Shown here: positions 19,742 through 61,099 of the stretch, piece after piece
Position numbering within the stretch: the first letter of the stretch is position 1
How the letters are laid out: every line of letters begins with the position of its first letter
Origin: an uncultured virus (IMG/VR IMGVR_UViG_3300035698_011514)
Lineage: Duplodnaviria > Heunggongvirae > Uroviricota > Caudoviricetes
Length of the DNA: 64,000 bases
IMG/VR virus record: IMGVR_UViG_3300035698_011514
Reading direction: 5' to 3' (one strand)
Notes under the pieces: generated by a model
Databases searched by the model: none
Told to the model about the DNA's origin: nothing
What the model saw: the letters and a program-made list of their open reading frames with translations, nothing else
Translations under genes and position numbers: made by a program

Positions 19742-19952
19742 CTTTTTTGTTCTCTTGAATTTTCTTGAACGTCTTACAGACTTTCTTCAAAATTGAAACA
19801 GAAGCGGTACCACCCGCAGCGATTTCCTGCCATGATCCACCCTTATCCTCAAAGACTAAGCGCATTCGCGTGTAATCTTCCAAAGTCACATCTTCGTTGT
19901 AACCCATATCCACAAGATATGTATTGAGAATCTTCTTCCAAAAGGAATTCAT
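19728..19952 (-). CDS. hypothetical protein (74 aa)
   Basis: GGAGG RBS; ATGA overlap with the terminase stop. Confidence 0.6.
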   Translation of the reverse strand: MNSFWKKILNTYLVDMGYNEDVTLEDYTRMRLVFEDKGGSWQEIAAGGTASVSILKKVCKTFKKIQENKKDETK

Positions 19953-28628: not shown

Positions 28629-29142
28629 TATCGTCTACCCCTTGAAGAGCTAACATGGCGACAGGTAATTCAACAACAGACTCAACCGAACGCATCTTAA
28701 AGAGTACCGTACAAGTGTCTTCCGTGACCATCCCCTTGCACACTCCCTTGAGGTCTTTATAAACACCCGCAGTGACGACCACAGTATCCCCTTCCGCAAA
28801 GATCACATGTGTGTAGTCTTGAAGAGCTTTCCGTATTTTATCTATTTTACTTTGAGGAAGTAATTGAAGATATGTCTTGTCACCATCCTGAGTATAGAGG
28901 ACGGAGCTGAAAAATGAGTTGTTCAACAGGTCAAAATACCTACCAGAAGGAAGCCCCGCCCGAACGAAGACATAGCCCTGAAGGTAGTATAGCGTGGTAG
29001 GGATACCACGCTTCACATAGGTCACGGCAGGAATGAAAACATCCCTTTCTTTATTGAGTAGTCGATCTAAGACTCTTTGTAGAGTCGCAGGATCTGTCGA
29101 TTCTCCCACCTGAGATAATTCGATAATAACCCATTCGCTCAT
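28621..29142 (-). CDS. nusG: NusG/RfaH-family transcription antiterminator
   Basis: NGN domain (W.II...VFIPA...L.GYVFV) plus KOW (F.EGDTV.VTAGVYKDLKG). Confidence 0.85.
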   Translation of the reverse strand: MSEWVIIELSQVGESTDPATLQRVLDRLLNKERDVFIPAVTYVKRGIPTTLYYLQGYVFVRAGLPSGRYFDLLNNSFFSSVLYTQDGDKTYLQLLPQSKIDKIRKALQDYTHVIFAEGDTVVVTAGVYKDLKGVCKGMVTEDTCTVLFKMRSVESVVELPVAMLALQGVDDND

Positions 29143-29158: not shown

Positions 29159-30535
29159 TTATGATGCGGTCGGTTTAAGTGTCATGTGGGGTATAGGTGT
29201 CGCAGTGACATCTTTTGAAAAGGCTCGTGCGGATCCAATGTCTTCCAAAGGGGGTGGAGGGATCTTGTGGTCGCGCATGTAAGGCGCATTCTTTTCAGTG
29301 ACCATCTGAGGCTGACCTTGAAAATTACCCCCCGAAGACAGCACCGTGCCTCCCTCCAAATGAGAGCCAGACACACGCTTAGGGGCCTCCAGAGAAGGTG
29401 CAGAAGACTGCGTGGATAAGACTTGAATGATTTGAGGCTGATCTTCCACGCAGAGCATAGATAGGATATAGAGAAGTGCGTACTCATCCTCTAGTGTGTG
29501 AAATATCTTCAAAAGATCTTCAATTTTCTTACAAAGCCGCAGCACAGAAACAGCGCTATGATTCATTCTCTCATAGAGTGCATCAATCTCGGCAACATAA
29601 GACGTAGATAAACCATATGCCTTGAAACGATATGTTTCCAAGGCAGCCCATAACAACCCCTGTGCTATCTTTTGAACACTGACGGTGTTCATAGCTATGC
29701 GGGCTTTGTCATAAGCCATGCGTAGCGCCGCTTGATTGTCTTTAGCCTGATACGCGTCACCCAATATCTGAAAGTAGAGAGGGACAACATCCAACCCCAA
29801 GACTTCGCGAGAACTTTGTAGTGTGATCTCACCACACACTTGAGACACGCGCTCCAGAGAACGAACCATGTCCCGTATGTGTCCATGACCCTGCTCAATC
29901 AGCAGCTCAAGTGCAGCGGGCTCATACTTGATCCCCTGAGCTTCACAGATATACACAAGACGAGCTAGTATTTCTTGAGTAGTAGGATCTTGAATCTTAA
30001 AAGTGTACGACCGCGACCTAATCGCCATGCGGATCTTTTCCAGCTCCGTAGTGCATAGGAAGCACACCATGCGACGATCTTTGCTTCCCGCGACCACATC
30101 TTCCATCGGCTTGAGCAAAGCATCCTGTGCCTGCGTTGATAGCCTGTGCGCTTCGTCGAACAAGTATATCTTGCGCGTTTGGCCGCCGAAAGTTGTATAG
30201 GATAAAGACTCAATGATCTGACGGACGGTATCTGCACCCGAATTGTTCGCTGCGTCTAATTCTGTGAAAGACTCCGATTGAGATTGATCTAGGATCGCGC
30301 GGCAAGATTCACATGTGTTGCAGGGCTCTCTATCTTCAGTCAAATTAAGACACAAGATTGCTCTTGCAAAGATACGAGCGATCGTCGTCTTACCTGCACC
30401 AGAACGGCCCGCAAAAATATAGGAACTCTGACAAGACTCCCCCCGCTTTAACAGCTGCTTCAAGGTTTGAATCGTAGCCGCCTGCCCTACGACTTCCGAA
30501 AAAAGAATGGGACGGTATAATGTGTCAAAGCTCAT
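29159..30535 (-). CDS. dnaX: DNA polymerase III gamma/tau clamp-loader subunit
   Basis: YRP..F.EVVGQ, G.SGAGKTTIARIFA, PCNTCESC, ELDAA, DEAHRLS..AQDALLK..E. Confidence 0.95.
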   Translation of the reverse strand: MSFDTLYRPILFSEVVGQAATIQTLKQLLKRGESCQSSYIFAGRSGAGKTTIARIFARAILCLNLTEDREPCNTCESCRAILDQSQSESFTELDAANNSGADTVRQIIESLSYTTFGGQTRKIYLFDEAHRLSTQAQDALLKPMEDVVAGSKDRRMVCFLCTTELEKIRMAIRSRSYTFKIQDPTTQEILARLVYICEAQGIKYEPAALELLIEQGHGHIRDMVRSLERVSQVCGEITLQSSREVLGLDVVPLYFQILGDAYQAKDNQAALRMAYDKARIAMNTVSVQKIAQGLLWAALETYRFKAYGLSTSYVAEIDALYERMNHSAVSVLRLCKKIEDLLKIFHTLEDEYALLYILSMLCVEDQPQIIQVLSTQSSAPSLEAPKRVSGSHLEGGTVLSSGGNFQGQPQMVTEKNAPYMRDHKIPPPPLEDIGSARAFSKDVTATPIPHMTLKPTAS

Positions 30536-31222: not shown

Positions 31223-31960
31223 CTATCCTAAAGATGAAAAGTCAAACATATTGAGGATAGATCCTAGATCGATCATGGGGGCGAAATGTTCACGAAACTT
31301 CCCATCCCCTTCGGTTTCCCTAAACTCCGCCAAATCTTTGTACGGGTAATCCCATAACGTAACGTTGACCTTGTGGTACTTCAAATAATCTTGGACCTTC
31401 TGAGCGCCTTTCTTCCCAACCACATCCATATCAAATAGCACTACCACTTCGGAACAGAAACGTTCCAAAAACTTGAGCTGGCTCTGCGAGATAGATGCAG
31501 TTGTGACGCATAGGCATCCGGGTACTATCTGCTCAAGGGCGAAGAAATCAAATATACCCTCTGTTAAGTACACCTTCTTGGAGCCATTGAGAACGGGGAG
31601 AATGTTTTGAAGCCCCATGAAATTGGGTAGAGCTTCCGATCCCGCTGCATATATCTTGTGAAACGTTTTCTTCTCCAAGCCACGCGTCTGAAGACCCCCA
31701 ACACGAAAGAGAGTATCATGAATAGGAAACACCAATTTATGTTCTAGTATCTTATTCCTATCCAGCCACTTTAGCAGGTAAGGAGACACCTTGCCTTGCA
31801 GTTCGTCACGCATGGGAGGGGCCGTCATGCCGATACTAAAACGCTCTATCTGATCGATAGTGACGCCACGATCTGTCAAGTAAGAGTGCAGGGGGCTTTG
31901 TTCTGATCGATGTGACAAACTAAGACTGTGGATCGTGGTGAGGTCTTTGTATGTGATCAT
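31223..31960 (-). CDS. dnaG: DnaG-type primase core (TOPRIM), no N-terminal Zn finger
   Basis: YL..RG......F.IG, LVFPI, VYLTEGIFD, LFDMD..GKKGA, KDLAE. Confidence 0.85.
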   Translation of the reverse strand: MITYKDLTTIHSLSLSHRSEQSPLHSYLTDRGVTIDQIERFSIGMTAPPMRDELQGKVSPYLLKWLDRNKILEHKLVFPIHDTLFRVGGLQTRGLEKKTFHKIYAAGSEALPNFMGLQNILPVLNGSKKVYLTEGIFDFFALEQIVPGCLCVTTASISQSQLKFLERFCSEVVVLFDMDVVGKKGAQKVQDYLKYHKVNVTLWDYPYKDLAEFRETEGDGKFREHFAPMIDLGSILNMFDFSSLG

Positions 31961-33784: not shown

Positions 33785-34972
33785 TCAGGTAGAGTAGGAA
33801 CAGAAGATAAACTTCTGCAAGCCGTTCGCATCAAGCATTGAGATTCGAGCAAACTTTGGGCTGACCACAAAGTTAATGGGAGCGCTTTGGGTTCCCATGA
33901 CTGCCAAAACTTTTAACACCTGATCTACCCTTAACGTGAGCCGCATGGGGAAAGTCACACGATCACTTTGAATGGCGACCATTCCCATGCGAAGATAAGC
34001 AGAATTGACATTCTTCGCAGAAGTCCCTTCGCGCTGCAAGATCATATCAACCATCACAGGCTCATCCCCTTCCACCACCAGAGTAGAGGGCTCGGGGATC
34101 TCCAGAACGATTGTCTTGGAGGTGACGGATGCTGATGCCGACACCGATTTATACGCCTTGGCGAAATCCTGCATGTTCAGCAAAAACAGAACGGGCTGAT
34201 TCACGTCACTGAAATTGAGCTGAGTTCGGAAATCTGTCACATGATCATAGGCGGGTTCTGAGAAACCAAACACAGATCCTTCCTTGGTCGAGAACAAGAC
34301 AGATGCGCGGTCTCGGCACATAGTGATCTTCTGACCCTTCGCTTTCTTCAGGAAGGCAAGGAGTGAAGGGACTTCCTGCAAACCGACTTTCAGATCAAGC
34401 AAGACACCTTCGCCCAGATCCGCGCCAGCTACATAACAGGCTGCGCCACCATCTGTCGCGATAGCTGATGCATCGCGGAAGCGGACCAAGCGCATGTTTT
34501 CCTTGATCTTGCCATCACCACTCGCATCTGGAAGGCCGTGGCGGGCATAATCCAAGCATTCAAAGAGTGCAGTGGCATCTACCTCTACGGCGCCCACCCC
34601 TTCGGTCGAAAGAATTTGAGGGAAAGAATCAGGCCGCATCGTCCTGAAGTACGACACAGATCGCCCACATGTAGCGACGATGGAATCTGGAGTCACTTCC
34701 AGCGCCACTTCATCACCCTCCAGCGTAGACAGCCACTTCGTAAGAGGTTCGGATTCGACCGTGAAGGCGCGTGGGTTTTCTGACAGACTGGTGTAGTAAA
34801 GAACAGAAGACGTAGATGTCATCTGATTTGTAGACTTGACCAGCATACGAGCGCCATCAGGCTCAATGAGCAAGTGGGAGAAAATAGACGATGCATCCTT
34901 GATAGTCGTCAAGGCCGCCAAAGACACAACACTTGTCAGGGCTTCGAGCGTCACAGTCACTTTCATCTTCAC
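33785..34972 (-). CDS. dnaN: DNA polymerase III beta sliding clamp (divergent)
   Basis: 395 aa; IFSHLLI...STN, PDSFP, AIATDG; clamp-loader genes nearby. Confidence 0.75.
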   Translation of the reverse strand: MKMKVTVTLEALTSVVSLAALTTIKDASSIFSHLLIEPDGARMLVKSTNQMTSTSSVLYYTSLSENPRAFTVESEPLTKWLSTLEGDEVALEVTPDSIVATCGRSVSYFRTMRPDSFPQILSTEGVGAVEVDATALFECLDYARHGLPDASGDGKIKENMRLVRFRDASAIATDGGAACYVAGADLGEGVLLDLKVGLQEVPSLLAFLKKAKGQKITMCRDRASVLFSTKEGSVFGFSEPAYDHVTDFRTQLNFSDVNQPVLFLLNMQDFAKAYKSVSASASVTSKTIVLEIPEPSTLVVEGDEPVMVDMILQREGTSAKNVNSAYLRMGMVAIQSDRVTFPMRLTLRVDQVLKVLAVMGTQSAPINFVVSPKFARISMLDANGLQKFIFCSYST

Positions 34973-45884: not shown

Positions 45885-48800
45885 TTACCCGGAGCAAGAG
45901 ACACAAGCCTCTTCTCTTTCCAGCGCCTTCTGGACGCTACGAACATAATACACGCACTTGACATCCTTTTCCCACGCGTGGAGAAGAACATCGTAGATAT
46001 GCTTCTTGGACATGCCCGGCTTATTCAGATCAAACAGAAGCTCCATGGAGATGCCCGTGTCAATCCATTTCTGAATGGTTGAGGTCATATCCACGATAGC
46101 TTTCTGATCAACATTCTTAAACTCCTGATAATACCAATTACTCTCAGCGAGATAAGGGGGGCAAATAGGGACGGTCTGGCCCCCGTTCTTGTCGAAGAAG
46201 AACTTCCCATAAGGGGGTAAGAATGATGCTGTGCATCCCTGAATAAGTGACGTGGAAGTCGTAGGGGCTATGGCGAGGATTTGAGAATGCCTCAAGCCGT
46301 CACGAGCAATGTCCGCTGCAAGCTCATTCCAAGCGTTACCCATCTTCCCCGTCGCGGCGATGTCTGAAGCCTTGCGGCCAAAGAAGATCCCTTTCTTCTG
46401 CTCGGACAGGTGAAAGGCTCCAAAAGATCCGTGTGTCTTGGCTAGTTTGTGTGAAGCCCTGTGGGTGTAGTAAGCGATCTGCTCGAACACCTGATCTGCT
46501 TCCGCGAGCGCCTTTTCACTAGAGTAAGCGATCTTCCTCTTGGCGAGCCAATCCGCCCAACCCATCACGCCCACGCCGATGGTGCGATACCACTCGTTGT
46601 GCATCTTCGCTTCTGGAATCGGCGTCTCAGTAATATCTATGGACGCATCCAAAAGAATGACAGCCATTTCTGCTATATATTCTAACTCGTCTTCTGTGAT
46701 GACAGCCAGATTTTTAGACAGAAGGTTGCAACAGTGAACAAGGCCCGCCACAGATACCTGCGAAATCTTACCGTCTACAATCTCTTGCTGACCGATCTGA
46801 GTGCGCTTCACGTTGGAAAACGACTCGACGCATTGTCCCGTCGCGATCCCATTGAACACGACCGTATGTGAAGGACTGACCGTCACATCATAGACATCTT
46901 CCTTACCAAGATAGTCGATGGAAGCGATTTTGGTCTCCCACTTTTCCGATTTGAGACTAAGGTAGTGACCTTCACGAAGGCTCTTGCACTGGGTATAGGC
47001 TTTCATCTTGGATGGGAGGTTTGTACCCACTTGCTCCATAAATTGCCATGCATTGTCTCCCTTGAAATCTAGGCGATACATTTGCTGGCATGGGTACAAA
47101 TGGTCTTCACGATTTGTATCTGGAAGCATATGATCATCAGCCTCACGACACGTCTGAATCCGAGACCTCAGCCCTAGCATAGACGCAAGAATCTTGACAT
47201 GCTGAAGCAGGGGAAGGTTCACAGCGCTAATTTGCACGGCAATCGTAGGATTGCTGTCTGCATTCTTGATCTGATAGCAGAAACCATCCGTGTCGAACAA
47301 ACCCTTCAAAAAAGACCTAATTGTCGCTGCGTCCGAATTGTACAACCATGCTGGAATGGTCTTCTTATCTACACAGATCACTTCACCCGCGATGTAGGCG
47401 GCGGCTACATCCGAATTGGTTCCGAATACCTGCTTGGAATTACCATTCAGATATATCTTAGATCCCACTGTCATTTTTGAGAGATGTACCAGCTCAAAGC
47501 TACCATCTTTGTTGACAACAGGAAACTTATGCCACTCGGTACACTTGATCTCAGATCCATCAGACATCTTGACAGAATAAACGTCTGCGTCCTTTGCTGT
47601 AATGGTCATGGCGACATCGGGTGTCACGAGATCATCATTGCCTGTACCCGAGAAACGAGCATCCACCAAGACCTTCGGATTCAATCCTGACTCCCACAAG
47701 ACTTTTGCGGGGACATTTCCCGTCTCGGTCATGATCAATGTGTCTCCCGTGACACAGAGATTTGCTGAAGGGATGATCCCATCTGCCTTGTTAGGATTGG
47801 CGCGATTGATCGTGTCCTTAAACATGAGGTAAGGCATACCCGTTTCAATCAGAATATCAATGATATGCTTGATCAAGTCACGGGCATCCATCGTCTTGTG
47901 CGGAATCAAGCCCAAGGATGCGCACTTCTCCGCGTGCGCATAGCGCTCTTCAAATTCAGATCCCCAACAATCGACCAGATCATACTTCTCGCCCAAGATC
48001 GTCTTAACTTCGTATGGACAAAAGAATGTCCACTTTCCGTTCGCCTTCACACGCTCCATAAAGAGGTCTGGGATCACGAGCTGAGGGTAAATATCAAACG
48101 CCTTTCTGCGCTGATCTCCGTTTTCCGTTTGCATCTCCAAGAAGTCCGGGATGTCCTTATGCCAGATGTCCAATGAGATCGTTCCCGCGCCCGCGCGAGC
48201 GCCCGCCTGATTGACCGCGACAAAAGTATCATTGGCGATGCGAACCCAAGGCAAAACACCACCAGACACTCCCGGCTGACCTAAGACGGCAGATCCCTTC
48301 GCGCGCACGGCGGACACGTTGAGCCCAACACCGCCGCCATTCTTCGAGATGCGCGAAATCTGGTCGATCAGATAGAAGATTGAATCTCTCGAATCATCCA
48401 TCTGGAGAACGAAGCATGACGTGAGGGATCCGCCGACACGGCGAAGATTGCGTAGAAGAGGTGTGGCGAGACTGATCTTGCGCTCAATGAGGACATCGAA
48501 GGCTTTGCGCACTTCCGAAACAACGAAAGTCTTATCTGCGTTCTTAGCTCCTGCACCCCATGCTCTATGGTGCTGAGACATGAGCAAGATAGCAACGGTA
48601 AGGAACATCTCACCTATGGACTCCACGATCACGCCGTTCTTGCGCACAAGATAGCGCTGCATGAGCATGTTCGCGCCCGCGTAGTCAAAATGACGTTCCG
48701 CTTCTTCATTCTTGATCTCGTCAAACCACTCAAGCGGCCATGTGTTCCCTATCCTTGTATCGTAGAGATTATCCTTGAGCATATGCCGTACATGCCCCGA

Positions 48801-49127
48801 GTAGTCTTCCATAGGTCCATAGCCGCGTCCCGTCTCAAGATCCTTCTTGAGGTCCATAATGGCGAGTCGAGCCGCTACAATGCGCCATGCGGGAGCTTGA
48901 GCCGTGGTCAACTTCACAGCGGCATCAATTAGAGAGCGCTGAATCGTCTTAGTTTCCATGCCTTCCACAAAGCGAAGACGGAGATGGGATTCCAAAACAT
49001 GTGATTGAACAGAAAGATCTTCACACGCAGCCTCTACGACCTTGCGGATCTTATCGACATTAAAAAACTGAGAAACGCCGGAGCGCTTCTTGACATTCAT
49101 TTGATCACTCATCATATCCTCAGACAT
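45885..49127 (-). CDS. nrdA: class I ribonucleotide reductase alpha subunit, intein-containing
   Basis: ATP cone, ATP.L.N, SCF, GGGVG, NL[intein]CVE, CNL, APT.STS, YYVRS, C-terminal CVSC. Confidence 0.95.
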   Translation of the reverse strand: MSEDMMSDQMNVKKRSGVSQFFNVDKIRKVVEAACEDLSVQSHVLESHLRLRFVEGMETKTIQRSLIDAAVKLTTAQAPAWRIVAARLAIMDLKKDLETGRGYGPMEDYSGHVRHMLKDNLYDTRIGNTWPLEWFDEIKNEEAERHFDYAGANMLMQRYLVRKNGVIVESIGEMFLTVAILLMSQHHRAWGAGAKNADKTFVVSEVRKAFDVLIERKISLATPLLRNLRRVGGSLTSCFVLQMDDSRDSIFYLIDQISRISKNGGGVGLNVSAVRAKGSAVLGQPGVSGGVLPWVRIANDTFVAVNQAGARAGAGTISLDIWHKDIPDFLEMQTENGDQRRKAFDIYPQLVIPDLFMERVKANGKWTFFCPYEVKTILGEKYDLVDCWGSEFEERYAHAEKCASLGLIPHKTMDARDLIKHIIDILIETGMPYLMFKDTINRANPNKADGIIPSANLCVTGDTLIMTETGNVPAKVLWESGLNPKVLVDARFSGTGNDDLVTPDVAMTITAKDADVYSVKMSDGSEIKCTEWHKFPVVNKDGSFELVHLSKMTVGSKIYLNGNSKQVFGTNSDVAAAYIAGEVICVDKKTIPAWLYNSDAATIRSFLKGLFDTDGFCYQIKNADSNPTIAVQISAVNLPLLQHVKILASMLGLRSRIQTCREADDHMLPDTNREDHLYPCQQMYRLDFKGDNAWQFMEQVGTNLPSKMKAYTQCKSLREGHYLSLKSEKWETKIASIDYLGKEDVYDVTVSPSHTVVFNGIATGQCVESFSNVKRTQIGQQEIVDGKISQVSVAGLVHCCNLLSKNLAVITEDELEYIAEMAVILLDASIDITETPIPEAKMHNEWYRTIGVGVMGWADWLAKRKIAYSSEKALAEADQVFEQIAYYTHRASHKLAKTHGSFGAFHLSEQKKGIFFGRKASDIAATGKMGNAWNELAADIARDGLRHSQILAIAPTTSTSLIQGCTASFLPPYGKFFFDKNGGQTVPICPPYLAESNWYYQEFKNVDQKAIVDMTSTIQKWIDTGISMELLFDLNKPGMSKKHIYDVLLHAWEKDVKCVYYVRSVQKALEREEACVSCSG
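46833..47756 (-). mobile_element. intein (308 aa) with partial LAGLIDADG domain and C-terminal Gln
   Basis: Starts CVTGDTLIMT; block B CTEWHKF; FLKGLFDTDG; VYDVTV..SH.V.FNGIATGQ|C. Confidence 0.92.
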
Positions 49128-49233: not shown

Positions 49234-50205
49234 TCACAGGTCGACGCGCTCAGTATAAAGTATCCAGAGGATGAATTTCTGAAAACGATCTGCTTCAAAT
49301 ATAATCATCCGCTGCATTTCAATGAGTTTGTGGTAACTCATTACTAACTGTTTGGTATTTTGTACGCGGATCTGATTGAGCATCTTTTCAGATTGTGGTT
49401 TAGACCATCCCATTAGCGAAGTGAGGGCAGTCTCCGACGCCCCATTGTCTAGCATACTACGAGCTTGAATCAAAGCCTCAATATGCTTGACGAACAGGGC
49501 TATCCACCCAAAAACTGGATCTTCACTGGCGCTGACCGTAGAAAATATCTTTTCTGCAATCCGCACACACATCGCATGATCCTTAAGGCCCCACGCTTCC
49601 AGCATCACAAAAGGTTTCATAACTTGATGAGCCACAAACACTTTCTGAAGCTCTTCAATAGAGATATTAGGGCCAGCCGCGCTTGCTTCCTTAAATACCT
49701 TCATCTTCTTGAGATCCAAGTCCAATAAAGTCTTGTCTTCCCCCAAGTTTAGAATCAACACCTCAGCATGTGTTTCTTGCAGAACGAGCCCACGACGCTT
49801 GGCCGCCCATACAAGCCATGAAGACATTTCCCATGCCTTCACGGCCTCATATTCAATCTTATGATCATGCTTGAGGGTCTTGAAAAATGCGGGGCTCTTA
49901 TCTTTATCTGATGTTACAAAGATGTAGAGATCTGGACGATTATCTTCGTTGATAATCTTCATCAAAGCCTCGCCCTTCTTCTTGTCCAGAAGGTCGATGT
50001 CTCTCCACACGATTAAGCGTCGATTCGAGAAAAGATCGGAGGGGGGGGTGTCGTCACCATAGACCGTAAGGCACTCCATATCTGGGAGGAGGCGTAATGC
50101 TTCCATGACCTCTAGCTCTTTGTAAAACGGATCCCCTGTTAAGATGACTCTTGTGGGAGTAGGTGCTGATCTCCAACGCATCTTCAAATCGAACTTTGAC
50201 ATCAT
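49234..50205 (-). CDS. holA: DNA polymerase III delta subunit (HolA-like)
   Basis: VIL.GD.F, DLFS.RRLIV, W....A...G..L...A..LI..LG.D...L..DL.K. Confidence 0.75.
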   Translation of the reverse strand: MMSKFDLKMRWRSAPTPTRVILTGDPFYKELEVMEALRLLPDMECLTVYGDDTPPSDLFSNRRLIVWRDIDLLDKKKGEALMKIINEDNRPDLYIFVTSDKDKSPAFFKTLKHDHKIEYEAVKAWEMSSWLVWAAKRRGLVLQETHAEVLILNLGEDKTLLDLDLKKMKVFKEASAAGPNISIEELQKVFVAHQVMKPFVMLEAWGLKDHAMCVRIAEKIFSTVSASEDPVFGWIALFVKHIEALIQARSMLDNGASETALTSLMGWSKPQSEKMLNQIRVQNTKQLVMSYHKLIEMQRMIIFEADRFQKFILWILYTERVDL

Positions 50206-51087
50206 TTACCCTTGATATCGGATATTCAGGATCTCCGCCGTGAAATGCGCGCGAGGTGATCCCATTCGTGAGTTCTGTTTAGACCACAGGTGCATTCGGA
50301 TCAGAGCGTTCAAGAGATTTCTGCGTTTAGAAGGATTCATCTCCGCGCCGAAGTCTTTTGCACGATCTTTGTAATTCGCAGCCATGATCCATTCACCCCC
50401 GTTCAGGAACACTTCTGTATGAATTAACCCTAAGAGAATTCCTTGCAAAAAGACTTGAGGCTCATCTTCGAGAATGGAGATGTCTTTGAGATTTGTAAAG
50501 ATGTCATGAACCTTGTGAAACCCTAAACCCCATATAAGATCCATTACCCTGTATAAGGTGTCTTCGTGAATATCCCAGAACGCTTCCATTTCTGGAATCC
50601 CTTGTGTAAGGTAAGATGAAAAGCTGTTCGTGTCGGCGCAAGGTCTATTGTGCAAGTCATAGATTTGAAATCGAGAAAGAAGCGGGAGGGGCCATCCCGC
50701 TAAGGTGGTAGCCGTCGTGAGAAGTCTGTGGGTTCGAGTGCGTCCCATTTCTTCAACTTGCTTGAGCAGGGCGTTTGCGGCGCCTGTCGTCAAAGTTTCC
50801 ATATCCTCAATGACCACAGTTCGCTTGGCAGACACCAAGGGAGGCTTCTGCAAGAGCGCGACGATTTCCCGCGCGCGATCTACGCCGATCGTCTTATCCC
50901 CCTCCGCGATCTTGAAGAGATGAAGATCCGTATCCGCCCTAGTCTTGGACAAGCCATAGATGTCCAAGACATCATCCAAGAGTGTCTTGAGACGCTGAGG
51001 GCTTGAGCAGACATACACGACAGCACCGGGGCCAGTATCGTTCACATGGTATTGGAGCGTATAGTGGAGAAGGGTTTCTTCAAGCAT
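50206..51087 (-). CDS. holB: DNA polymerase III delta-prime subunit (HolB-like)
   Basis: D.H......TIGVD.AREI......P......VVIED.E.LT..AANALLK..EE, LLSR. Confidence 0.8.
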   Translation of the reverse strand: MLEETLLHYTLQYHVNDTGPGAVVYVCSSPQRLKTLLDDVLDIYGLSKTRADTDLHLFKIAEGDKTIGVDRAREIVALLQKPPLVSAKRTVVIEDMETLTTGAANALLKQVEEMGRTRTHRLLTTATTLAGWPLPLLSRFQIYDLHNRPCADTNSFSSYLTQGIPEMEAFWDIHEDTLYRVMDLIWGLGFHKVHDIFTNLKDISILEDEPQVFLQGILLGLIHTEVFLNGGEWIMAANYKDRAKDFGAEMNPSKRRNLLNALIRMHLWSKQNSRMGSPRAHFTAEILNIRYQG

Positions 51088-52097: not shown

Positions 52098-52351
52098 TTC
52101 GCTTCCTTGTTTGGTATTGTACTCAAAGGCGCTAGGTTGGATCGCGGACCCTTGAAAGGTCGAATAGCCACTTTTTGATGGTATCCCTTCGGGGTCAGGT
52201 AATGCAGCGTTTGAGACACCACAAACACACCACTCCCTATATCTTCGAAGTCTTCAAAAGTTAACTCTTCCCCCTTGGTAAGCAATGGGATTGTTAAGAC
52301 TTTGTGATCTTCCCAGATACCCGGCGCGAACATATAAGTCGTCACAAGCAT
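52094..52351 (-). CDS. hypothetical protein
   Basis: TAATG overlap with the KH gene. Confidence 0.55.
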   Translation of the reverse strand: MLVTTYMFAPGIWEDHKVLTIPLLTKGEELTFEDFEDIGSGVFVVSQTLHYLTPKGYHQKVAIRPFKGPRSNLAPLSTIPNKEAK

Positions 52352-52698
52352 TAAAGGGCTCCCGCAATGATCTTGTGGTCTACAAGCTCAATTTCTATAT
52401 TGTGCCCATACTTGTTTCCGATTGCCTTCATCAGCATCGTCAACGACTTGATCAGGATTCCCTTCTTTCCGATGATCTTGCCCATCTCCTTCGGCGGGAC
52501 CGTAACGGAGAAGATCACTTTGCTTGCTGTTCTCATCGTGGACATAAGGATAGTTGCATTGTCATCAATCAAGAATGCAATCATGTCCTGAAGCATTCCT
52601 TCTAGATCCGGGATCACGTCATACGGTGAATCGCTCATTAGAACACTCGTGGCGGGTTTGCATGTCATATCGTAGTACATGCTGTAATCGGCAGGCAT
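52351..52698 (-). CDS. khpA: KhpA (YlqC/UPF0109)-like KH-domain RNA-binding protein
   Basis: L..MI..LIDD...V...EMGKIIGKKG..IKSL..L..A.G......IEIE; start reset to the ATG after GGAGG. Confidence 0.85.
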   Translation of the reverse strand: MPADYSMYYDMTCKPATSVLMSDSPYDVIPDLEGMLQDMIAFLIDDNATILMSTMRTASKVIFSVTVPPKEMGKIIGKKGILIKSLTMLMKAIGNKYGHNIEIELVDHKIIAGAL

Positions 52699-52779
52699 AG
52701 AGCCTCCTAGGGAAAGACAATCTTGTTGCATGAAATACCCCCCATGATTCATGCACCACCATAACACACAATGCATAAC

Positions 52780-52825
52780 AAGAAAACAAAAAAAGCGCAT
52801 ATAACGATTAAATCGTATGCGCTTT
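52780..52825 (-). terminator. intrinsic terminator closing the 1.5-kb non-coding transcript
   Basis: Minus strand AAAGCGCAT-ACGAT-TTA-ATCGT-TAT-ATGCGCTTT followed by TTTTGTTTTCTT. Confidence 0.75.
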
Positions 52826-54297
52826 CAAGGGCAGAAATATCTAGCGAAAGATTCTCCTGATCACCTACATCACCATCACGCAAATAAAGGCACAGCCCCT
52901 AAGGACTCCGAACTCTATCTGGAGTAGTGTCTATTCATTTATCAGAGAAGGGCATACACGTTGAATCTTGTAGCTCTTGCATCAAGAATTCACTGACGGT
53001 GGGGTATCACCGATCCATTCGTTTAAGGTCGAATGAGGACATCAACACCTACCTGCGCTTGACCTCTTCACATCACGAGAGGTACTGCGTTGGATTTTGC
53101 TATAACGCTTGTTTCCGCTTCTAGGCCCGGAATTTAGATGTAGTAGCCTACGATAATTTGGGTTTCATCGCCGTAATCGTGAGGGGGCGATCCTTATTTG
53201 ATTCCTCTCCAAGAGAGCCCATTGTACTACCCAGCTATGTTGAAACACGACTGGAGCAACGGGACGCTTCTTTGAGGCATACATCCTGTTTAGGTTCAGG
53301 CTGAGACATGTAGTTTGCGTCCGATGTCTAGGTGACGCTCTTTTCTTTATTTATTCGCCCAGCGTGGCCGTCCATGTTTCAGGGATCTTGTCACCAAACC
53401 GAACCGGGAATTAAAGAGTAACGAACCGCTCTTTTTTACGGCGTTGAGATCGCCCTTACGCCCGAGTCGTAAGTGGGGAGTTGCTACTATTGCTTCTCCT
53501 CTTATTGTGATCGCCCCATTTTTCTATCACAACAAACGTCGCCCTGCGTGGTCTAGTCTTCACGAATGAAGACAGTATGTTGGATTTAATGGGATTCTTC
53601 CTCTCCGCCCTACATGGGTTGGACTTTACATTTCCGAATCTCCGCAGAGACCTCGGGATCGTGCAAAGTTGGTTCGAACTGCTACCAACCATTGCCCATC
53701 TTGTTTTACCGCATACGGAATGGATACCCGTCTTGGTGGCATGGAAGCCCTGCATGGCTCCCATCATGGAGAGGTCTTTGATGTCTTTGCTTAGGATATA
53801 CTTAGTCTTGCCTTGCAGAGATACTACGAAAGCCGAATTATGATCCCTCATCTCAAATAGATAAATGGCACAAGCGGGTCTAATGCCCTGATGCTTGCTT
53901 ACCCACCTCCGTCCAAAATTCGTCATCATATTCTGCCTCTTTTTCCCGGTAAGACCCTGATGATCTCTCCTAAACTTGCGAACGACACCCGATCCTATGT
54001 ACGCTTTTTAGACTACTTACGCGCTTGTTTTACATCGTCTTCCACTACCTAGTCAGCGGGGCTCGATGTTCACCTTGATTACATGATCATGTCGTCAAGG
54101 TCGCTTGTAAGAGGCGTAGGAGGCTTTTGACCCATCTACACACGGAGAGTGAGCAACTCCAGCATGGTTCGTCCATGCTCCCTCTGGGGATCGAGAAAGG
54201 AGACTCAAGCGAGTGACTATGATCCTCATCGTCTCCCTTCCAGCGAAAGTCTTGTGGGCGGACTTACCCACCAAACAAGACCTTCACCCAGAAGTTA
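52790..54297 (-). ncRNA. candidate ~1.5-kb highly structured non-coding RNA of unrecognised class
   Basis: No credible ORF; own promoter and terminator; more than 12 hairpins, UUCG loops and G-U pairs on the minus strand; long-range helices. Confidence 0.7.
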
Positions 54298-54303
54298 AGA
54301 AGT

Positions 54304-54332
54304 ACTGTATACGCCTGACGCAGACGTGTCAA
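54304..54332 (-). promoter_or_regulatory. sigma70-type promoter of the candidate ncRNA
   Basis: TTGACA (54332-54327), 17 nt, TACAGT (54309-54304). Confidence 0.75.
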
Positions 54333-54872
54333 ACAATTCTTGATAATCCGCTTGGAAAATGTCCATAACATAAAGATAGAGTAGCCGGACCCATTTTATT
54401 CTCAAAATAGAAGCGCTCACTACCTGTTCCTACGAGGATACGCTTCCAACGTCACCAAAGCCCCCCCAACACCACGAAGCCCCTCGGGGCTTGGTGTGAC
54501 TCGCACAAGCATTAAGCAAGGCTCTACGTCCCTCGTTAGCATGTCCTCACCCTTATCACACCCCCCCTCCGAACATCCTCCCCTAGGATACCTCACTGAC
54601 AACCCACATCCCTTCGAACAGTAAGAGGTGGCACTCTGATCCCCCCTCATCCAAACCATAGCCCCCTAGAACGCCCCTTAAAGCCCTCCGGGCATCCTCC
54701 TCGATGATTCACCCTCAAGGCAAATAAGAAGGTCTCAGTGTTCGTCTTTGGCACCTTCTCGCTTCGCTTCCTTGGAACCCCCCCACGCGTGCGCCTCGCG
54801 CGCGCCAGCGCACACCCGCGCCTCGCGCGCACACCCGCGTTTCTTTCTTCTTCTATATATATATAAATAATT

Positions 54873-55183
54873 AAACAGAGGAGAAGCAATAGTAGGGGGG
54901 GATAGAACCCCTGAAGGGGGTATGAAAAATAATTGAGATATTTTTAAGAAGGTCATTCCAGCCTAAGGAACCAATAAGGGGAGGCCCTTCCGGGGATTGG
55001 TGTCTGTTCTTTGGAGACAGAGAACCTCCACCCAAGGGGGGGTTCTCCCGCATCTCTTACCTACCTTAGCCCTTGAGAGCCCCTAAAAACATAGACACAA
55101 TTCTGTAACACTGTTGTAACACAAATGTCACAAAGATTGTTTTTAGGGTTCTATCCCCCCCTACTATTGCTTCTCCTCTGTTT
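54873..55183. repeat. perfect 38-bp inverted repeat (54873-54910 / 55146-55183), 235-bp spacer
   Basis: AAACAGAGGAGAAGCAATAGTAGGGGGGGATAGAACCC and its exact reverse complement. Confidence 0.92.
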
Positions 55184-55237
55184 GGGTGTTCGATAGCTTC
55201 CCTTCCCCAAGGGGGGAAGGAAAAGGATAGAGGGTGA

Positions 55238-55458
55238 GAAGGGGGATCTTAAAGAAGTGTTCTTAGGAGGGGGGTGGGAAGGGGGATCTTAAAGAGGTGT
55301 TCTTAGGTAGGGGGGGGGGATCTTAAAGGGGGGTTCTTAGGTTGGGGGGGGGGTGGGTAAGGAAGGTTTTTAAGGGTGGGGGGGGGGTGGGGGGGGGGGG
55401 GGGAAGGGGGGATCTTAATGGTGAGCTTGGGAGAGGTTGGGACAGATAGGATCTTAAT
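55238..55458 (+). repeat. G-rich iterated repeats GGGGGATCTTAAAG..GTTCTTAGG
   Basis: Three full copies (~55238, 55278, 55316) and partial GGATCTTAA copies (~55410, 55449), separated by G-runs. Confidence 0.85.
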
Positions 55459-55507
55459 TGTATTTATTGTTTTTAGATATCTTTTAGATTATGTTTGTTC
55501 GGCTAAA

Positions 55508-55539
55508 AAATAAGGTAGCCTGTGATGGCTACCTTATTT
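55508..55539 (-). terminator. intrinsic terminator ending the AAA/vWA operon
   Basis: AAATAAGGTAGCC-TGTGAT-GGCTACCTTATTT. Confidence 0.8.
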
Positions 55540-55557
55540 CTTCACTAGGCATGAGAT

Positions 55558-55884
55558 TCAGGTTGGTCGAATGGAGATTAGGGAAGGGTGCCACTCTAGG
55601 GGTTCTGAAGATCCGTCTCCGAAGAACCGATTGAGATGTTCAACGATCAATTCCTTCATTTCGGGCTCAATCTTGAGGAAGAAATCCTGTTCGAAGTGGC
55701 TGACAATGGGGGATACAAGATCCAAAGAATTCTTCTGCATCTGAATTTTATGATATCTCCGGAGGATATCTGTCTTTGTCTTATCTTGACAGGATGTCTG
55801 GAAGCTACAATGAAACTGGCACTCTTCATGAGTTTCGTCATAGAATCCGTGACAATCTAGCCCTGTTGGAATTCTGTGAGACAT
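55558..55884 (-). CDS. hypothetical protein with N-terminal Cys cluster
   Basis: C.G.YD....EC...C.F...C; AGGTG RBS. Confidence 0.6.
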   Translation of the reverse strand: MSHRIPTGLDCHGFYDETHEECQFHCSFQTSCQDKTKTDILRRYHKIQMQKNSLDLVSPIVSHFEQDFFLKIEPEMKELIVEHLNRFFGDGSSEPLEWHPSLISIRPT

Positions 55885-59221: not shown

Positions 59222-60127
59222 ATGCGCGCACCATATCCCTACTTCGGCGGAAAAAGTAAAATCGCTCCTCTCATATGGGAGCGCTTTGGGAAGATTCGGC
59301 ATTACGTCGAACCTTTCGCGGGATCGTTAGCCGTTTACCTAGGCTGTCCAGAAGGGGTTCACCCCGCGAACACGACGCTCAATGACCTTGATGGGTATAT
59401 TACTAATTTTTGGCGCTCTGTGAGATCACGCCCTCTCGATGTGGCAAGTCACGCAAAGAGACCTCGATCTGAAATAGACATGGTCGCCTGCCATGGGGAG
59501 ATCCAGAGGAGACGTGAAACCTTGACCTTAAACCTTATGCGCGATCCTTATTACTGTGATCCCGAACTCGCGGGTTGGTGGGTTTGGGGTATGTCTGTGG
59601 CGATAGGAGATCGTTGGCTTCAAATTTTTGAAGATCCTGAGCCTTTCCGCTCCGCCGCACCAAAGCTAGAAACTTCGGGTGTGTTCTCCGTGTATTCGGG
59701 AGGGCTTGAGAAGTGGATGCAAGATTTGGCTGCTTGTCTTGTGGAGTCGCGCATCTTGTGTGGAGACTGGAAGCGGTGCGTTACGGATGGCATTCTGTAT
59801 TATCGAGATTGGGATACGGGCATATTTTTGGACCCACCTTACAAGGGGGAAGGTCGCAGGAAAAAGATTTATAGTTTTGACCTCGCAGATGAGGTCGACC
59901 TTCATAAAGAAATACAAGATTTCTGTCTCGACACAGGGACGAACACGAAGATAGCTGTATGTGGTTACGAAGGGGATTTTGAGTTCCCGGAAACATGGGA
60001 ATGCGTGTCGTGGAAATCTAACGGCGGCTACGCTAGTGATGGCGCGGGGAGAGAGAATCGAGATAGGGAGCGCATATGGTTTTCTCCCGCCTGTCAGAAG
60101 CCTGATAAGACGCCTAGCCTGTTCTAG
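59222..60127 (+). CDS. DNA adenine (N6) methyltransferase, D12 class
   Basis: PYFGGK, YVEPFAGS, NDLD, FLDPPY. Confidence 0.9.
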   Translation: MRAPYPYFGGKSKIAPLIWERFGKIRHYVEPFAGSLAVYLGCPEGVHPANTTLNDLDGYITNFWRSVRSRPLDVASHAKRPRSEIDMVACHGEIQRRRETLTLNLMRDPYYCDPELAGWWVWGMSVAIGDRWLQIFEDPEPFRSAAPKLETSGVFSVYSGGLEKWMQDLAACLVESRILCGDWKRCVTDGILYYRDWDTGIFLDPPYKGEGRRKKIYSFDLADEVDLHKEIQDFCLDTGTNTKIAVCGYEGDFEFPETWECVSWKSNGGYASDGAGRENRDRERIWFSPACQKPDKTPSLF

Positions 60128-60169: not shown

Positions 60170-61099
60170 TCAGCGTCCTAGAGCTGCCTCAATCACGTCG
60201 CCCCACTTGGCTTTCAAATAGGTCCGGATCTTGGTGACTAGATAATACACGGATCGCTCCGTGTAAGGCTTGAGAGACGTGCCCTCAATAAATGTTTTGT
60301 TCAGAGCCTCAACGAGTGGTATCGTCACCGTCTTATTGTTTAGGACGATCGTGATTGGCTCACGTCCAATCTGCACTGCGTTTTCAACATCAGGATTCTC
60401 AAGATAGGCTTGCCAGATCATTCCCAGCGCGGGGTCTTGCTTCTCCAGATCTCTTCGGATCGTGTCTACCATGCTCTTGAGATCTGTGCGTAGCTCATTT
60501 TGATCAGATTTGTTCAAGCCCTGAAGGTCTACGATGCGTTCTGAGAGTTGCTTCTTGTCTTCACCTGTACCCGTATCTTGCAGCGACTTACCTTGCTGGT
60601 TCACGACCACATGGCGGCTTTGCTTTCGCATCCATGAAGATCCCAGCTGGAAAACACGATTCTTGACGAGCTTGACGATATCCAAAGGACTGCGCCCCGT
60701 GGCGAGGTAATCCGAACATATCTGCCCGATGTCACCATGACCGAACTTGGAGCCATTAGCACTATCCGTACCCGTCACGAGCGATGTGACGACATGGGAA
60801 AGCATATCGTCAAAATCTTCTTTAGATAAAGATCGTGACTTCGATTGAAAATCACGAAAGACCTTCATCGTCGAAGTCATGATCTCGTGCCCCCAATTCC
60901 AACCCAAACTCGTGTCTACTTTGTGCGTAGTTAGAATTGAGTTGAACAAGACTTCAATGTCTCGCTTCGAGTAGGAGTCATTAAACGCCTTCTTGAAGAA
61001 CCCGCGCACTGCTTTGACAAATCTTACGTTCAGGGGGAAAGACGCATAGACGCGCTTGCGTTCAGCATCAATACGAGCTACGACATTTCGATTCGGCAT
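60170..61099 (-). CDS. hypothetical protein, weakly sigma-factor-like
   Basis: GGAG RBS; EDFDD.LS.V...L ... WMRK..R ... SLQD spacing reminiscent of sigma regions 2-3. Confidence 0.6.
   Translation of the reverse strand: MPNRNVVARIDAERKRVYASFPLNVRFVKAVRGFFKKAFNDSYSKRDIEVLFNSILTTHKVDTSLGWNWGHEIMTSTMKVFRDFQSKSRSLSKEDFDDMLSHVVTSLVTGTDSANGSKFGHGDIGQICSDYLATGRSPLDIVKLVKNRVFQLGSSWMRKQSRHVVVNQQGKSLQDTGTGEDKKQLSERIVDLQGLNKSDQNELRTDLKSMVDTIRRDLEKQDPALGMIWQAYLENPDVENAVQIGREPITIVLNNKTVTIPLVEALNKTFIEGTSLKPYTERSVYYLVTKIRTYLKAKWGDVIEAALGR

Follow-up and report, generated by a model that had tools for sequence, protein, structure and literature searches.

A gene-free region with G-tract repeats, unstable A+T-rich tracts and a perfect inverted repeat as a candidate replication origin of a huge phage

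The largest gene-free gap in a 64-kb stretch of huge phage DNA (64,000 nucleotides, hereafter the window) lies at the head of the replication operon and combines five GATC-bearing G-tract repeats, extremely unstable duplex DNA, a perfect 38-nt inverted repeat, a short motif that points outward on both sides, and, at or near the gap, a compositional polarity switch. We tentatively interpret this region, with a core at about 54420-55542, as a replication origin of the iteron-plus-unwinding-element type.

By ORF map, the gap measures 1628 nt, the next largest ones being 655 and 353 nt. The 157-aa ORF at 53456-53929 is not credible, with a codon-usage score of -0.095 bits/codon, compared with 0.07-0.36 in real genes, and an Atlas model at pLDDT 0.32; with this ORF dropped, the gene-free stretch extends over 2.76 kb (52801-55557). 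The ORFs within the gap have poor codon scores, an Atlas look-up of a 108-aa ORF gave nothing usable, and no long ORFs appeared when the gap was read with TAG as Q or TGA as W. No Rfam family reached its gathering score in the 64-kb window; in E-value mode just two chance-level rows fell over 53800-55700 and none over 52600-54600, and no tRNA or tmRNA genes were found. The first credible gene to the left of the gap encodes a KH-domain protein (52351-52800), and the module headed by the gap encodes HolA (holA, TIGR01128), a delta'-like protein, RNR, RecD2, RuvC, RecA, and SbcCD, and further a beta clamp, a Toprim primase, and tau/gamma. The upstream neighbour across the gap is a CobS/CobT-like operon. 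Gene direction is constant across the gap, with three minus-strand genes to its right; the genes on that side have normal codon-usage scores, which argues against a foreign origin of those genes, and usage is alike on both sides. The window is over-rich in GATC and encodes a Dam-like methylase. The source is a salt-lake huge phage with its own bacterial-style DNA-copying machinery. The features of the region and its surroundings are the following:

52801-54303, minus strand: gene-free part between the sigma70-like promoter and the KH-domain gene, a possible long leader, carrying the third arm-core copy
53484-53507, plus strand: third, partial copy of the arm core (19 nt identical; 22/24 to the right arm)
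54304-54332, minus strand: sigma70-like promoter (TTGACA, 17-nt spacer, TACAGT), facing left to the replication operon
54420-54783, plus strand: flank rich in C (39.6% C, 16.8% G), containing runs of C6-C7 and weakly periodic at ~119 nt
54784-54853, plus strand: GC-rich imperfect hairpin tract with two short direct repeats, then a 13-nt T-rich pyrimidine tail
54854-54875, unstranded: pure A/T tract abutting the left arm, candidate unwinding element
54873-54910, plus strand: left arm of the inverted repeat (38 nt)
54911-55145, unstranded: inter-arm segment (235 bp) of mixed composition
55146-55183, minus strand: right arm of the inverted repeat (38 nt)
55232-55457, plus strand: G-tract repeat array of three clean units of 34-40 nt (55240-55345) plus two degenerate units, all containing GGATCTTAA (GATC)
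55454-55513, unstranded: stretch rich in T and in A+T that adjoins the repeat array and contains two short direct repeats; candidate unwinding element
55505-55542, minus strand: predicted intrinsic terminator of the CobS/CobT-like operon (hairpin with a 16-bp stem, then a T run)

The repeat array consists of a family of five copies spaced 40, 34, 34, and 58 nt apart, in agreement with the iterated units of the original prediction. The units occur nowhere else in the window; the three clean ones have E values of 4e-8 to 5e-7 against their own profile. G runs in the array reach 15 nt. GGATCTTAA is found five times in the window, always within 55244-55449 (at 55244, 55284, 55318, 55410, and 55449), and its spacings of 40, 34, 92, and 39 nt are no multiples of the helical turn, so that the repeats are not helically phased. 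Over 55232-55440 the plus strand is 55.5% G and 3.8% C, and 15 of the 38 runs of at least six G or C in the window sit in 54461-55411. The units had also been described as prone to form G-quadruplexes, which a G4 prediction bore out with G4Hunter scores of up to 3.84 over 55254-55425 on the plus strand; the sole canonical G4 motif of the window with loops of at most 7 is located at 55374-55411, and on the minus strand G4Hunter gives about 2.0 over 54457-54687. A degenerate inverted copy of the unit, proposed for the left side, did not hold up: the profile of the three clean units reaches 54668-54683 only at E = 1, at rank 6 in the window, and a left-versus-right blastn comparison of the region had a best E of 0.06. 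A search of metagenome_contigs for the exact pattern of the repeat unit was empty. Readings of the repeats as a type III toxin-antitoxin, retron, CRISPR, or telomere were dropped from anatomy alone, since there is no toxin, RT, or cas gene, the period does not fit and the block is internal to the contig.

Such long G runs could partly or wholly be an artefact of sequencing or assembly, either two-colour poly-G or a chimeric join through poly-G. Apart from isolated T and A, the segment 55374-55411 consists almost wholly of G, and 55288-55454 is covered by none of the listed public contig pieces, the depth there falling to 1.43 in public run X1 (the evidence from public runs consists of assembled contigs at a depth of about 5, not of reads). 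However, the long G runs are flanked by GGATCTTAA, which has no further copies in the window: three precede them (55244, 55284, 55318) and two follow (55410, 55449). An X1 contig spanning 54883-55287 agrees with the first two units at every position, and runs X2, X3, and X4 each have pieces at no less than 99% from both sides of 55288-55454. Together with the similar codon usage on the two sides, this leaves only the lengths of the G runs (G10-G15) in doubt, not the block, and makes an artefact highly improbable.

The block adjoins DNA that is exceptionally easy to melt. Among all 30-bp windows of the 64 kb, duplex stability is lowest at 54845-54874 and next lowest at 55461-55490. At a width of 60 bp, the minimum falls on 55454-55513, in contact with the repeat array; a TRF row (55457-55475) lies within this T-rich stretch. 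The (TA)n tract reported to the left is present as a (TA)6-led pure A/T run (54854-54875), the longest in the window. By contrast, the CG alternation singled out just before it is less distinctive than proposed, as runs of at least 10 are common window-wide and those of the tract itself are only 11 nt.

Strand composition changes across the region in the direction originally stated, C-rich on the left and G-rich on the right, with a GC skew of -0.29 to -0.58 over 54400-54750 and of +0.63 to +0.91 over 55200-55450 (100-nt windows). In 200-nt windows, the peak of the right block is +0.878, compared with a maximum elsewhere of +0.381 (mean -0.045, sd 0.119), and the left flank, at -0.509 versus -0.419 elsewhere, is only modestly exceptional. 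The sign change behind the predicted skew flip is thus present, but it is local: the plus strand is C-rich again at 56-59 kb (-0.05 to -0.10). Within the window, cumulative GC skew reaches its minimum at 53-55 kb. For the third-position G+T skew of the 54 minus-strand genes, the best change point is the gene just right of the gap (means of 0.149 versus 0.016, |t| 5.07, reached by 11 of 5000 permutations); an a-priori 48|6 split of the genes was reached by 9 of 20000 permutations. The window has only 8.5 kb and 10 genes to the right of the gap. The strand term flips across the gap from -0.063 to +0.05, and that of GC3 from -0.051 to +0.031 (bootstrap fraction at or below zero, 0.006). GC3 skew alone is weak (379 of 10000 permutations for the a-priori split, 324 of 2000 scan-wide), the AT3 change point lies at 49 kb, and splits placed at 49, 51.3, or 54 kb describe the polarity switch almost equally well (RSS 86-88). 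A further mirrored arrangement concerns the motif GGNGTTCT. Six of its seven matches in the window lie within 54675-55599 and point outward on both sides, with minus-strand copies up to 54911 and plus-strand copies from 55039 on.

These observations agree in part with the bidirectional origin of the original prediction. Tandem direct repeats, three clean and two degenerate where an iteron-type site has at least three, adjoin an A+T-rich candidate unwinding element in the least stable DNA of the window, the site heads the replication operon, the motifs are mirrored, and third-position composition changes sign with the polarity of an origin. On the other hand, no initiator is recognised, the repeats are unphased, the change point may fall anywhere in 49-54 kb, GC3 is weak, and no DnaA boxes accompany the array: 20 were found in the window (at most one mismatch to the consensus), none of them between 49051 and 56179. 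In the origin that we propose, an initiator of the phage or its host, so far unrecognised, would bind the five GATC-bearing repeats and open the T-rich stretch at 55454-55513, the (TA)n tract at 54845-54875, or both. The replicative helicase and the Pol III-type machinery of the phage would then load at the opened tract and forks would leave in both directions. The outward G tracts and GGNGTTCT motifs would prolong the opened state or give it a direction, firing would be coupled to the Dam-like methylase of the phage through the GATC sites, and the flanking terminators would keep incoming transcription out of the core. Searches with Pfam (73), PHROGs (27+27), and NCBIfam (22 ORFs) recognised no initiator, helicase loader, or Rep-like protein. 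The 309-aa protein encoded at 60170-61099 was modelled at pLDDT 78 from 17 sequences; it belongs to no Pfam family, has no noteworthy sequence match in the PDB and no Foldseek match at E <= 0.001, and yielded only middling helical or sigma-like VIA rows (Z 5-8.4). The single-sequence model of a 134-aa ORF (pLDDT 38) was unusable. Several small neighbours of the repeats are without family.

Among the closest counterparts are the iteron-plus-DUE origins of phage lambda (ori with the O protein) and of iteron plasmids such as P1, F, RK2, and pPS10, which likewise have tandem direct repeats adjoining easily melted A+T-rich DNA in a non-coding site beside replication genes. GATC sites inside repeats are also known from P1 oriR and oriC, a further likeness. 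In contrast with the phased 17-22-nt iterons of those origins, the units of this phage measure 27-32 nt, are embedded in G tracts and are irregularly spaced (34-92 nt), no cognate initiator gene is recognised nearby, DnaA boxes are missing, and the region has a second AT tract as well as an additional 311-bp element bounded by the inverted repeat. Initiator sites mirrored about an AT-rich core are found in SaPI/PICI origins, the SV40 core origin, and archaeal ORB pairs. The likeness consists in short motifs that face outward, inverted repeats on either side of a core, and an AT tract along its edge; it is architectural only, since here we find no initiator of SF3/MCM or Orc type but a bacterial-type RecA, a sigma region 4 protein, and a Pol III clamp loader. 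In phage T4, origins lie at shifts of strand bias, and each has an A+T-rich unwinding element alongside either a promoter or iterons (PMC3016281). With the R-loop origins oriF and oriG of T4, and with oriE and its 12-nt iterons, our region shares a non-coding location, a composition shift at or near the site, and a phage with its own replisome and recombination genes. Nevertheless, the minimal T4 origins are about 100 bp long and occur where transcription switches direction, whereas here gene direction is constant, an outward promoter is not established and the G tracts are without T4 counterpart.

For huge phages with a bacterial-type replisome of their own, hardly any replication origins have been mapped. 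The literature searched did not describe any origin built of iterons or G tracts in phages of this kind, and the sole origin prediction found, for phage G, came from an Ori-Finder run (PMC12484599). If the region described here is an origin, its 1.1 kb bring together GATC repeats, a pair of unwinding tracts, G tracts facing outward, and a perfect inverted repeat in one concrete fragment that could be used for initiator pull-downs, for unwinding or R-loop assays in vitro, and for reading replication state from metagenome coverage. Even as an insulator or a switch, it would be an unusually dense cluster of motifs prone to non-B DNA in a compact genome.

The G tracts also bring to mind a bidirectional origin driven by structure rather than by a classical initiator, in which transcripts leaving the core of the inverted repeat would prime the leading strands in a mitochondrion-like manner; we regard this as quite unlikely. 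On the C-rich template, outward G-rich transcripts would give rise to persistent R-loops or hybrid G-quadruplexes; inward transcription of these tracts would yield poly-C RNA that recruits Rho and shields the core; and the KH-domain protein, encoded by the first gene past the gap, could hold the displaced C-rich strand. Such a mechanism, if true, would amount to a transcription-primed origin in a phage with a bacterial-type replisome. Priming from an R-loop is the type represented by ColE1 RNA II. In mitochondria, transcription stops at a block of G runs, where a hybrid G4 R-loop arises and primes DNA synthesis (PMC3488243, PMC4176368). Like CSB II and ColE1 RNA II, our region would present a non-template strand rich in G runs to outward transcription and has G4-competent sequence (G4Hunter 3.84; motif at 55374-55411). 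It differs in that its blocks are mirrored on both sides and no promoter is shown to face the G block, the only match leading into it being the sigma70-like site at 55073-55101 (plus strand), with 9 of 12 positions.

One point against the favoured iteron-type origin is the inverted repeat, which together with its third partial copy is unusual for such origins and suggests a process at the DNA level, for example recombination. The 38-bp repeat of the original prediction is perfect, with arms that are 100% complementary and 235 nt apart (two matches in the window, none in 100 shuffles). The 19-mer core of the arms has three matches in the window and likewise none in 100 shuffles, in the order forward, reverse, forward, the third copy lying 1.4 kb to the left in the orientation of the right arm. 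The inter-arm segment holds a G7 run, a 7-bp inner dyad at ~55034, two TGTAACAC repeats, and the weak sigma70-like site just mentioned, and it folds no better than shuffles (235 nt; z -0.5 and -0.8). The 311-bp segment bounded by the repeat could be an invertible switch of inverton or shufflon type, with the third 19-nt core as a further site, or a recent MITE-like insertion, the G-rich repeats being unrelated neighbours. The identity of 38/38 arm positions in fast-evolving non-coding DNA points to recombination or recent duplication, and invertible promoters such as fimS and the Bacteroides invertons have a size range into which the 235 bp between the arms fall. Like these and the R64 shufflon, the region has a perfect inverted repeat around a segment of roughly 0.3 kb, and a third 19-nt core copy in alternate orientation. 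The weak sigma70-like site lies inside the segment. Nonetheless, Pfam, PHROGs, and NCBIfam revealed no recombinase, invertase, or transposase in the 64-kb window, there are no shuffled coding segments, and the inner promoter matches just 9/12, three such sites being found where 1.7 are expected. The ends of the arms differ, the left flank being A/T-only and the right one G-rich, so that they show no direct repeat and no target-site duplication. Terminal inverted repeats, as in a MITE or IS, are present, but dispersed copies amount to one partial copy of 19-24 nt at 1.4 kb, and exact-pattern searches for the arm were empty in viral_contigs (38 nt) and genome_contigs (28 nt). The single listed contig across the segment (54883-55287) has the orientation of the window and no joints, although such low-depth contigs are blind to a minority orientation. 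On balance, a rearrangement element is an unlikely explanation of the region as a whole.

A more substantial competitor to an origin, to which we nonetheless give a limited chance, is a boundary or control region of transcription without origin function, separating the CobS/CobT-like operon from the replication operon. It would comprise the intrinsic terminator, backed up by Rho acting on a poly-C 'super-rut' in the minus-strand RNA from 55440 to 55232; the C-rich tract, GC hairpin, and T tail, which would stop antisense transcripts running rightward; the promoter at 54332; and, beyond it, a long leader for a NusG/RfaH-like antiterminator or another regulator, the repeats being operator or regulator sites. 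Several elements fit such an arrangement. The terminator hairpin at 55505-55542, whose surroundings fold with a z of -4.33 (55450-55599, minus strand), appears from its sequence usable in both directions. The GC-rich tract at 54784-54853 is terminator-like for rightward transcription, given a predicted site at 54825-54840 (plus strand) and a fold z of -3.16; predicted terminators for inward transcription stand on both flanks. Minus-strand RNA over 55232-55440 would have the C-rich, G-poor composition of a rut site, which takes some 80 nt or more of unstructured RNA (55.5% C and 3.8% G); plus-strand RNA over 54420-54783 would be 39.6% C and 16.8% G, and poly(C) is the classical strongest Rho cofactor. 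The promoter at 54304-54332 matches the sigma70 consensus at 10/12 positions, a level that only nine sites in the window reach or exceed when both strands are counted. Just downstream of it the sequence is structured (54100-54324, minus strand, z -2.7 to -3.3). The phage also encodes a NusG/RfaH/UpxY-like protein (28621-29142) and a sigma region-4 protein (27858-28628). However, control of transcription leaves the third-position polarity switch, the outward mirroring of GGNGTTCT, and the perfect 38-nt inverted repeat unexplained. No plus-strand gene enters the left flank, which means that a strong terminator there has little to stop, and a non-transcribed spacer of 1.1 kb is large for a compact phage genome whose other intergenic gaps do not exceed 655 nt. 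Moreover, such functions are compatible with an origin and do not exclude one.

A packaging site or genome end (pac, cos, or the boundary of a terminal repeat), with the GATC repeats as sites for the terminase small subunit, is very unlikely. Repeat arrays and GATC clusters do occur at some pac sites, such as P1 pac; the region is large, non-coding, and contains bent or unstable DNA, in a GATC-over-rich genome with a Dam-like methylase. Against this, the gene for the large terminase (19949-21889) is ~33 kb distant, a packaging site does not predict a switch in strand composition, and listed public contigs reach both sides of the region without loose ends or pile-ups, although contigs cannot reveal termini.

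The phage collection contained no DNA match to 54300-55600 or to the RNR gene. Protein-anchored searches of viral_contigs (with the CobT-like protein, its alignment, the CobS-like protein, and the holA alignment) and of metagenome_contigs yielded no relatives. The nearest catalogued phage, LR745208.1, has a TerL that is 38% identical but neither a CobT homologue nor a cluster of G runs. At the protein level, the CobT-like protein has four relatives at 41-43% identity and holA has one at 57%, all encoded on short contigs.

The window is part of the genome of a large tailed phage. It encodes a large terminase (38% identical to its counterpart in a 485-kb uncultured phage), a portal, a prohead protease-like protein, and a capsid protein, and near-identical DNA occurs in contigs from five salt-lake metagenome runs of five studies. 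Its replication and recombination genes, nearly all on the minus strand, make up a set of bacterial type, which includes a PD-(D/E)XK nuclease, SbcCD-like proteins, RecA, RuvC, RecD2, and both RNR subunits, together with the following:

29159-30535, tau/gamma
31223-31960, Toprim/DnaG-like primase
33785-34972, sliding-clamp-like protein
49234-50205, holA (TIGR01128)
50206-51087, delta'-like protein

The RNR large subunit (45885-49127, minus strand) is 1080 aa long; residues 9-460 match a family of N-terminal RNR halves and residues 757-1079 one of C-terminal halves, and the ~300 residues separating the two matches could represent an inserted element, for instance an intein. A sigma-70 region 4 protein (27858-28628, minus strand) is the neighbour of a NusG/RfaH/UpxY-like antiterminator paralogue (28621-29142, minus strand; NCBIfam E 1e-5; PHROG 'transcription antiterminator'), and the minus-strand gene train of ~45 kb may be run by such antitermination and promoter-recognition factors of the phage's own.

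The window contains a gene-free stretch of 2.76 kb (52801-55557), the remaining gaps of the window being of at most 655 nt. The first credible gene past it (52351-52800, minus strand) codes for a KH-domain (RNA/ssDNA-binding) protein of the KhpA type that is extended at its N terminus by 68 residues. The stretch is larger than first reported because its sole sizeable ORF, of 157 aa (53456-53929, minus strand), is not credible as a gene and looks spurious, with a codon score of -0.095 bits/codon versus 0.07-0.36 in real genes, a pLDDT of 0.32 for its model in the Atlas structure database, and no family match in Pfam, PHROGs, or NCBIfam. Recoding TAG or TGA as sense opens no long ORF in the gap, and a search of the window found neither tRNAs nor Rfam families. 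Features resembling transcription signals in the gap include:

right edge of the gap, minus strand, hairpin with a 16-bp stem followed by a T run, terminator of a CobS/CobT-like operon
54332-54304, pointing left, promoter-like site TTGACA-17-TACAGT, a match of a kind seen nine times in the window

Just downstream of this sigma70-like promoter, the minus strand of 54100-54324 is more stably folded than its shuffles (two overlapping windows of 150 nt give z -2.7 and -3.3) and may be a structured 5' leader. On the other side, a 108-aa ORF (55558-55884, minus strand) adjoins the repeat array described below; its Atlas entry starts only at residue 54 and its nearest Atlas clusters are hypothetical proteins of 50-61 aa, such that its real product may be a protein of ~55 aa.

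The 38-bp inverted repeat of the original prediction is real: its arms (54873-54910 and 55146-55183) are complementary at 38/38 positions and lie 235 nt apart, and the pair occurs once in the window and in none of 100 shuffles. A third copy of the 19-nt core of the arm, oriented like the right arm, is found at 53484-53502. Arms that match perfectly, and a core present three times with alternating orientation, hint at recombination, as in an invertible or mobile element. Such an element is nevertheless unlikely, given that Pfam, PHROGs, and NCBIfam searches of the window detected neither a recombinase nor a transposase, that there is no target duplication, and that exact searches of viral_contigs and genome_contigs retrieved no further arm copies. 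The one listed public contig piece across the segment between the arms has the window's orientation, in a type of data where a minority orientation is invisible.

The region is also compositionally asymmetric. The G-rich right side held up, with a plus-strand GC skew of +0.63 to +0.91 over 55200-55450 (100-nt windows); the block at 55232-55440 has 55.5% G and 3.8% C, and its 200-nt skew (+0.878) lies far outside the values elsewhere in the window (maximum +0.381, sd 0.119). On the other flank, C-richness is as claimed (skew of -0.29 to -0.58 over 54400-54750 in 100-nt windows; 39.6% C and 16.8% G on the plus strand of 54420-54783), although barely beyond background (minimum -0.509 versus -0.419). 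Fifteen of the window's 38 G or C runs of at least six fall in 54461-55411, the left side holding the C runs and the right side the G runs. The iterated units within the right block form a family of three clean (55240-55345) and two degenerate GATC-bearing copies, sharing the 9-mer GGATCTTAA, whose five copies in the window all lie within this repeat array, at spacings of 40, 34, 92, and 39. The case for their supposed inverted copy on the left is weakened: it scores only E=1 against a profile made from the clean copies, and the best left-versus-right blastn match has E=0.06. A mirror arrangement is absent for this long unit but present for the short motif GGNGTTCT: six of its seven matches in the window are inside 54675-55599, minus-strand copies up to 54911 and plus-strand copies from 55039. 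The CG-alternating tract is not exceptional as alternating DNA, CG-type alternating runs of at least 10 being scattered across the coding regions of the window, but it does form an imperfect, GC-rich hairpin that ends in a pyrimidine tail. The TA tract is the longest A/T-only one (54854-54875). Across all 64 kb, duplex stability in 30-bp windows is lowest at 54845-54874, which contains this tract next to the left arm, and at 55461-55490; in 60-bp windows it is lowest at 55454-55513, which touches the repeat array.

It is extremely improbable that the region is an artefact, since the doubt raised about the G-runs is restricted to their lengths. Flanking evidence indicates that the block is real: a contig from one public salt-lake metagenome run agrees with 54883-55287 with zero differences, whereas 55288-55454 is uncovered among the public contig pieces listed and the run lengths there come from the window sequence only. 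The two sides are unlikely to have been joined chimerically through poly-G, because the unique 9-mer flanks the long G runs on both sides and both flanks are present in each of three further runs.

The flanking genes were examined for a switch in strand composition. Raw GC skew shows none: with genes still running on the minus strand at 56-59 kb, the plus strand is C-rich again there. Since raw GC skew is confounded by gene strand, we used third codon positions and split the coding-strand term from the strand term. With a right-hand sample of only ten genes, the GC3 strand term changes from -0.051 on the left to +0.031 on the right (bootstrap fraction at or below 0 of 0.006), and permutation of minus-strand genes is only weakly significant (379/10000 for the a-priori split, 324/2000 for a free change point). 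The G+T (keto) third-position skew is stronger: when the 54 minus-strand genes are split at a free change point, the best one falls at the gene immediately to the right of the gap (means of 0.149 versus 0.016, |t| 5.07, matched by 11/5000 permutations), the a-priori 48|6 split is matched by 9/20000, and the strand term goes from -0.063 to +0.05 across the gap. Leading strands in bacteria are usually G+T-rich and, if this applied here, the polarity of the switch would be that expected of an origin. For G+T, the fit is about equally good with the split placed at 49, 51.3, or 54 kb, and the third-position A/T skew of minus-strand genes shifts sharply near 49 kb (-0.28 to -0.07, |t| 7.8), 5-6 kb left of the gap and apart from the G/C change. 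Gene-expression differences could mimic part of the polarity effect; the genes to the right have normal codon scores.

Our leading, though tentative, interpretation is that replication starts in this region, at an origin that combines iterons with an unwinding element and heads the replication operon. What is observed is the repeat array and its contact with the least stable DNA, the second unstable tract, the GGNGTTCT mirror, the flank terminators, and the nearby compositional switch. A putative initiator would bind the repeats, the AT tracts would then open, helicase would load onto them, and forks would depart in both directions. The bidirectional origin initially proposed retains its repeats, unwinding tracts, and polarity switch, but lacks a recognizable initiator (the Pfam, PHROGs, and NCBIfam searches of the window yielded no initiator family), regular spacing, and DnaA boxes (none with at most one mismatch between 49051 and 56179). 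Also counting against it, gene direction does not switch at the site, and the perfect inverted repeat and the third core copy are left unexplained. The striking anatomy yields precise, testable parts, while function remains a prediction. The nearest phage precedent is T4, where (PMC3016281) origins sit at strand-bias shifts, oriF and oriG combine a promoter with an A+T-rich unwinding element and work via an R-loop, and oriE has iterons of unknown role. In the open-access literature searched, we found no description of an iteron or G4 origin in huge or jumbo phages, nor did the phage, viral, genome, and metagenome contig collections searched provide relatives of the gap DNA or neighbouring loci.

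Priming by transcription is quite unlikely; outward transcripts, being G-rich, would pair with the C-rich template as R-loops or hybrid G4, by analogy with mitochondrial CSB II (PMC3488243, PMC4176368). The sole outward promoter candidate matches at 9 of 12 positions. Transcribed inward, these tracts would be poly-C Rho sites insulating the 235-nt core between the arms (54911-55145), and the KH-domain protein could hold the C-rich strand. Rho prefers C-rich, G-poor RNA, which both flanks would produce when read inward; each flank is paired with a hairpin terminator, and a NusG/RfaH-like factor is among the phage's gene products. On this reading the region would be a transcription boundary or control hub, which is conceivable, if doubtful; it is compatible with an insulated origin but explains neither the polarity switch nor the inverted repeat. 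A packaging site or genome end is very unlikely, the terminase gene lying 33 kb away.

GATC occurs 589 times in the window versus ~249 expected by base composition; in the part of the gene-free stretch between 54221 and 55245 it is nearly absent, with one site. A Dam-family methylase-like protein, whose family match covers the first ~80 residues only, and a C-5 cytosine methylase are encoded, the methylase entries being:

59222-60127, plus strand
4461-5516, minus strand

A 309-aa protein (60170-61099, minus strand) has 18 distant relatives and an all-helical model with a small beta hairpin (pLDDT 78) that had no match in Foldseek. Several of its weak VIA rows are sigma factors, with Z of 5.0-6.6, a range common among helical proteins.
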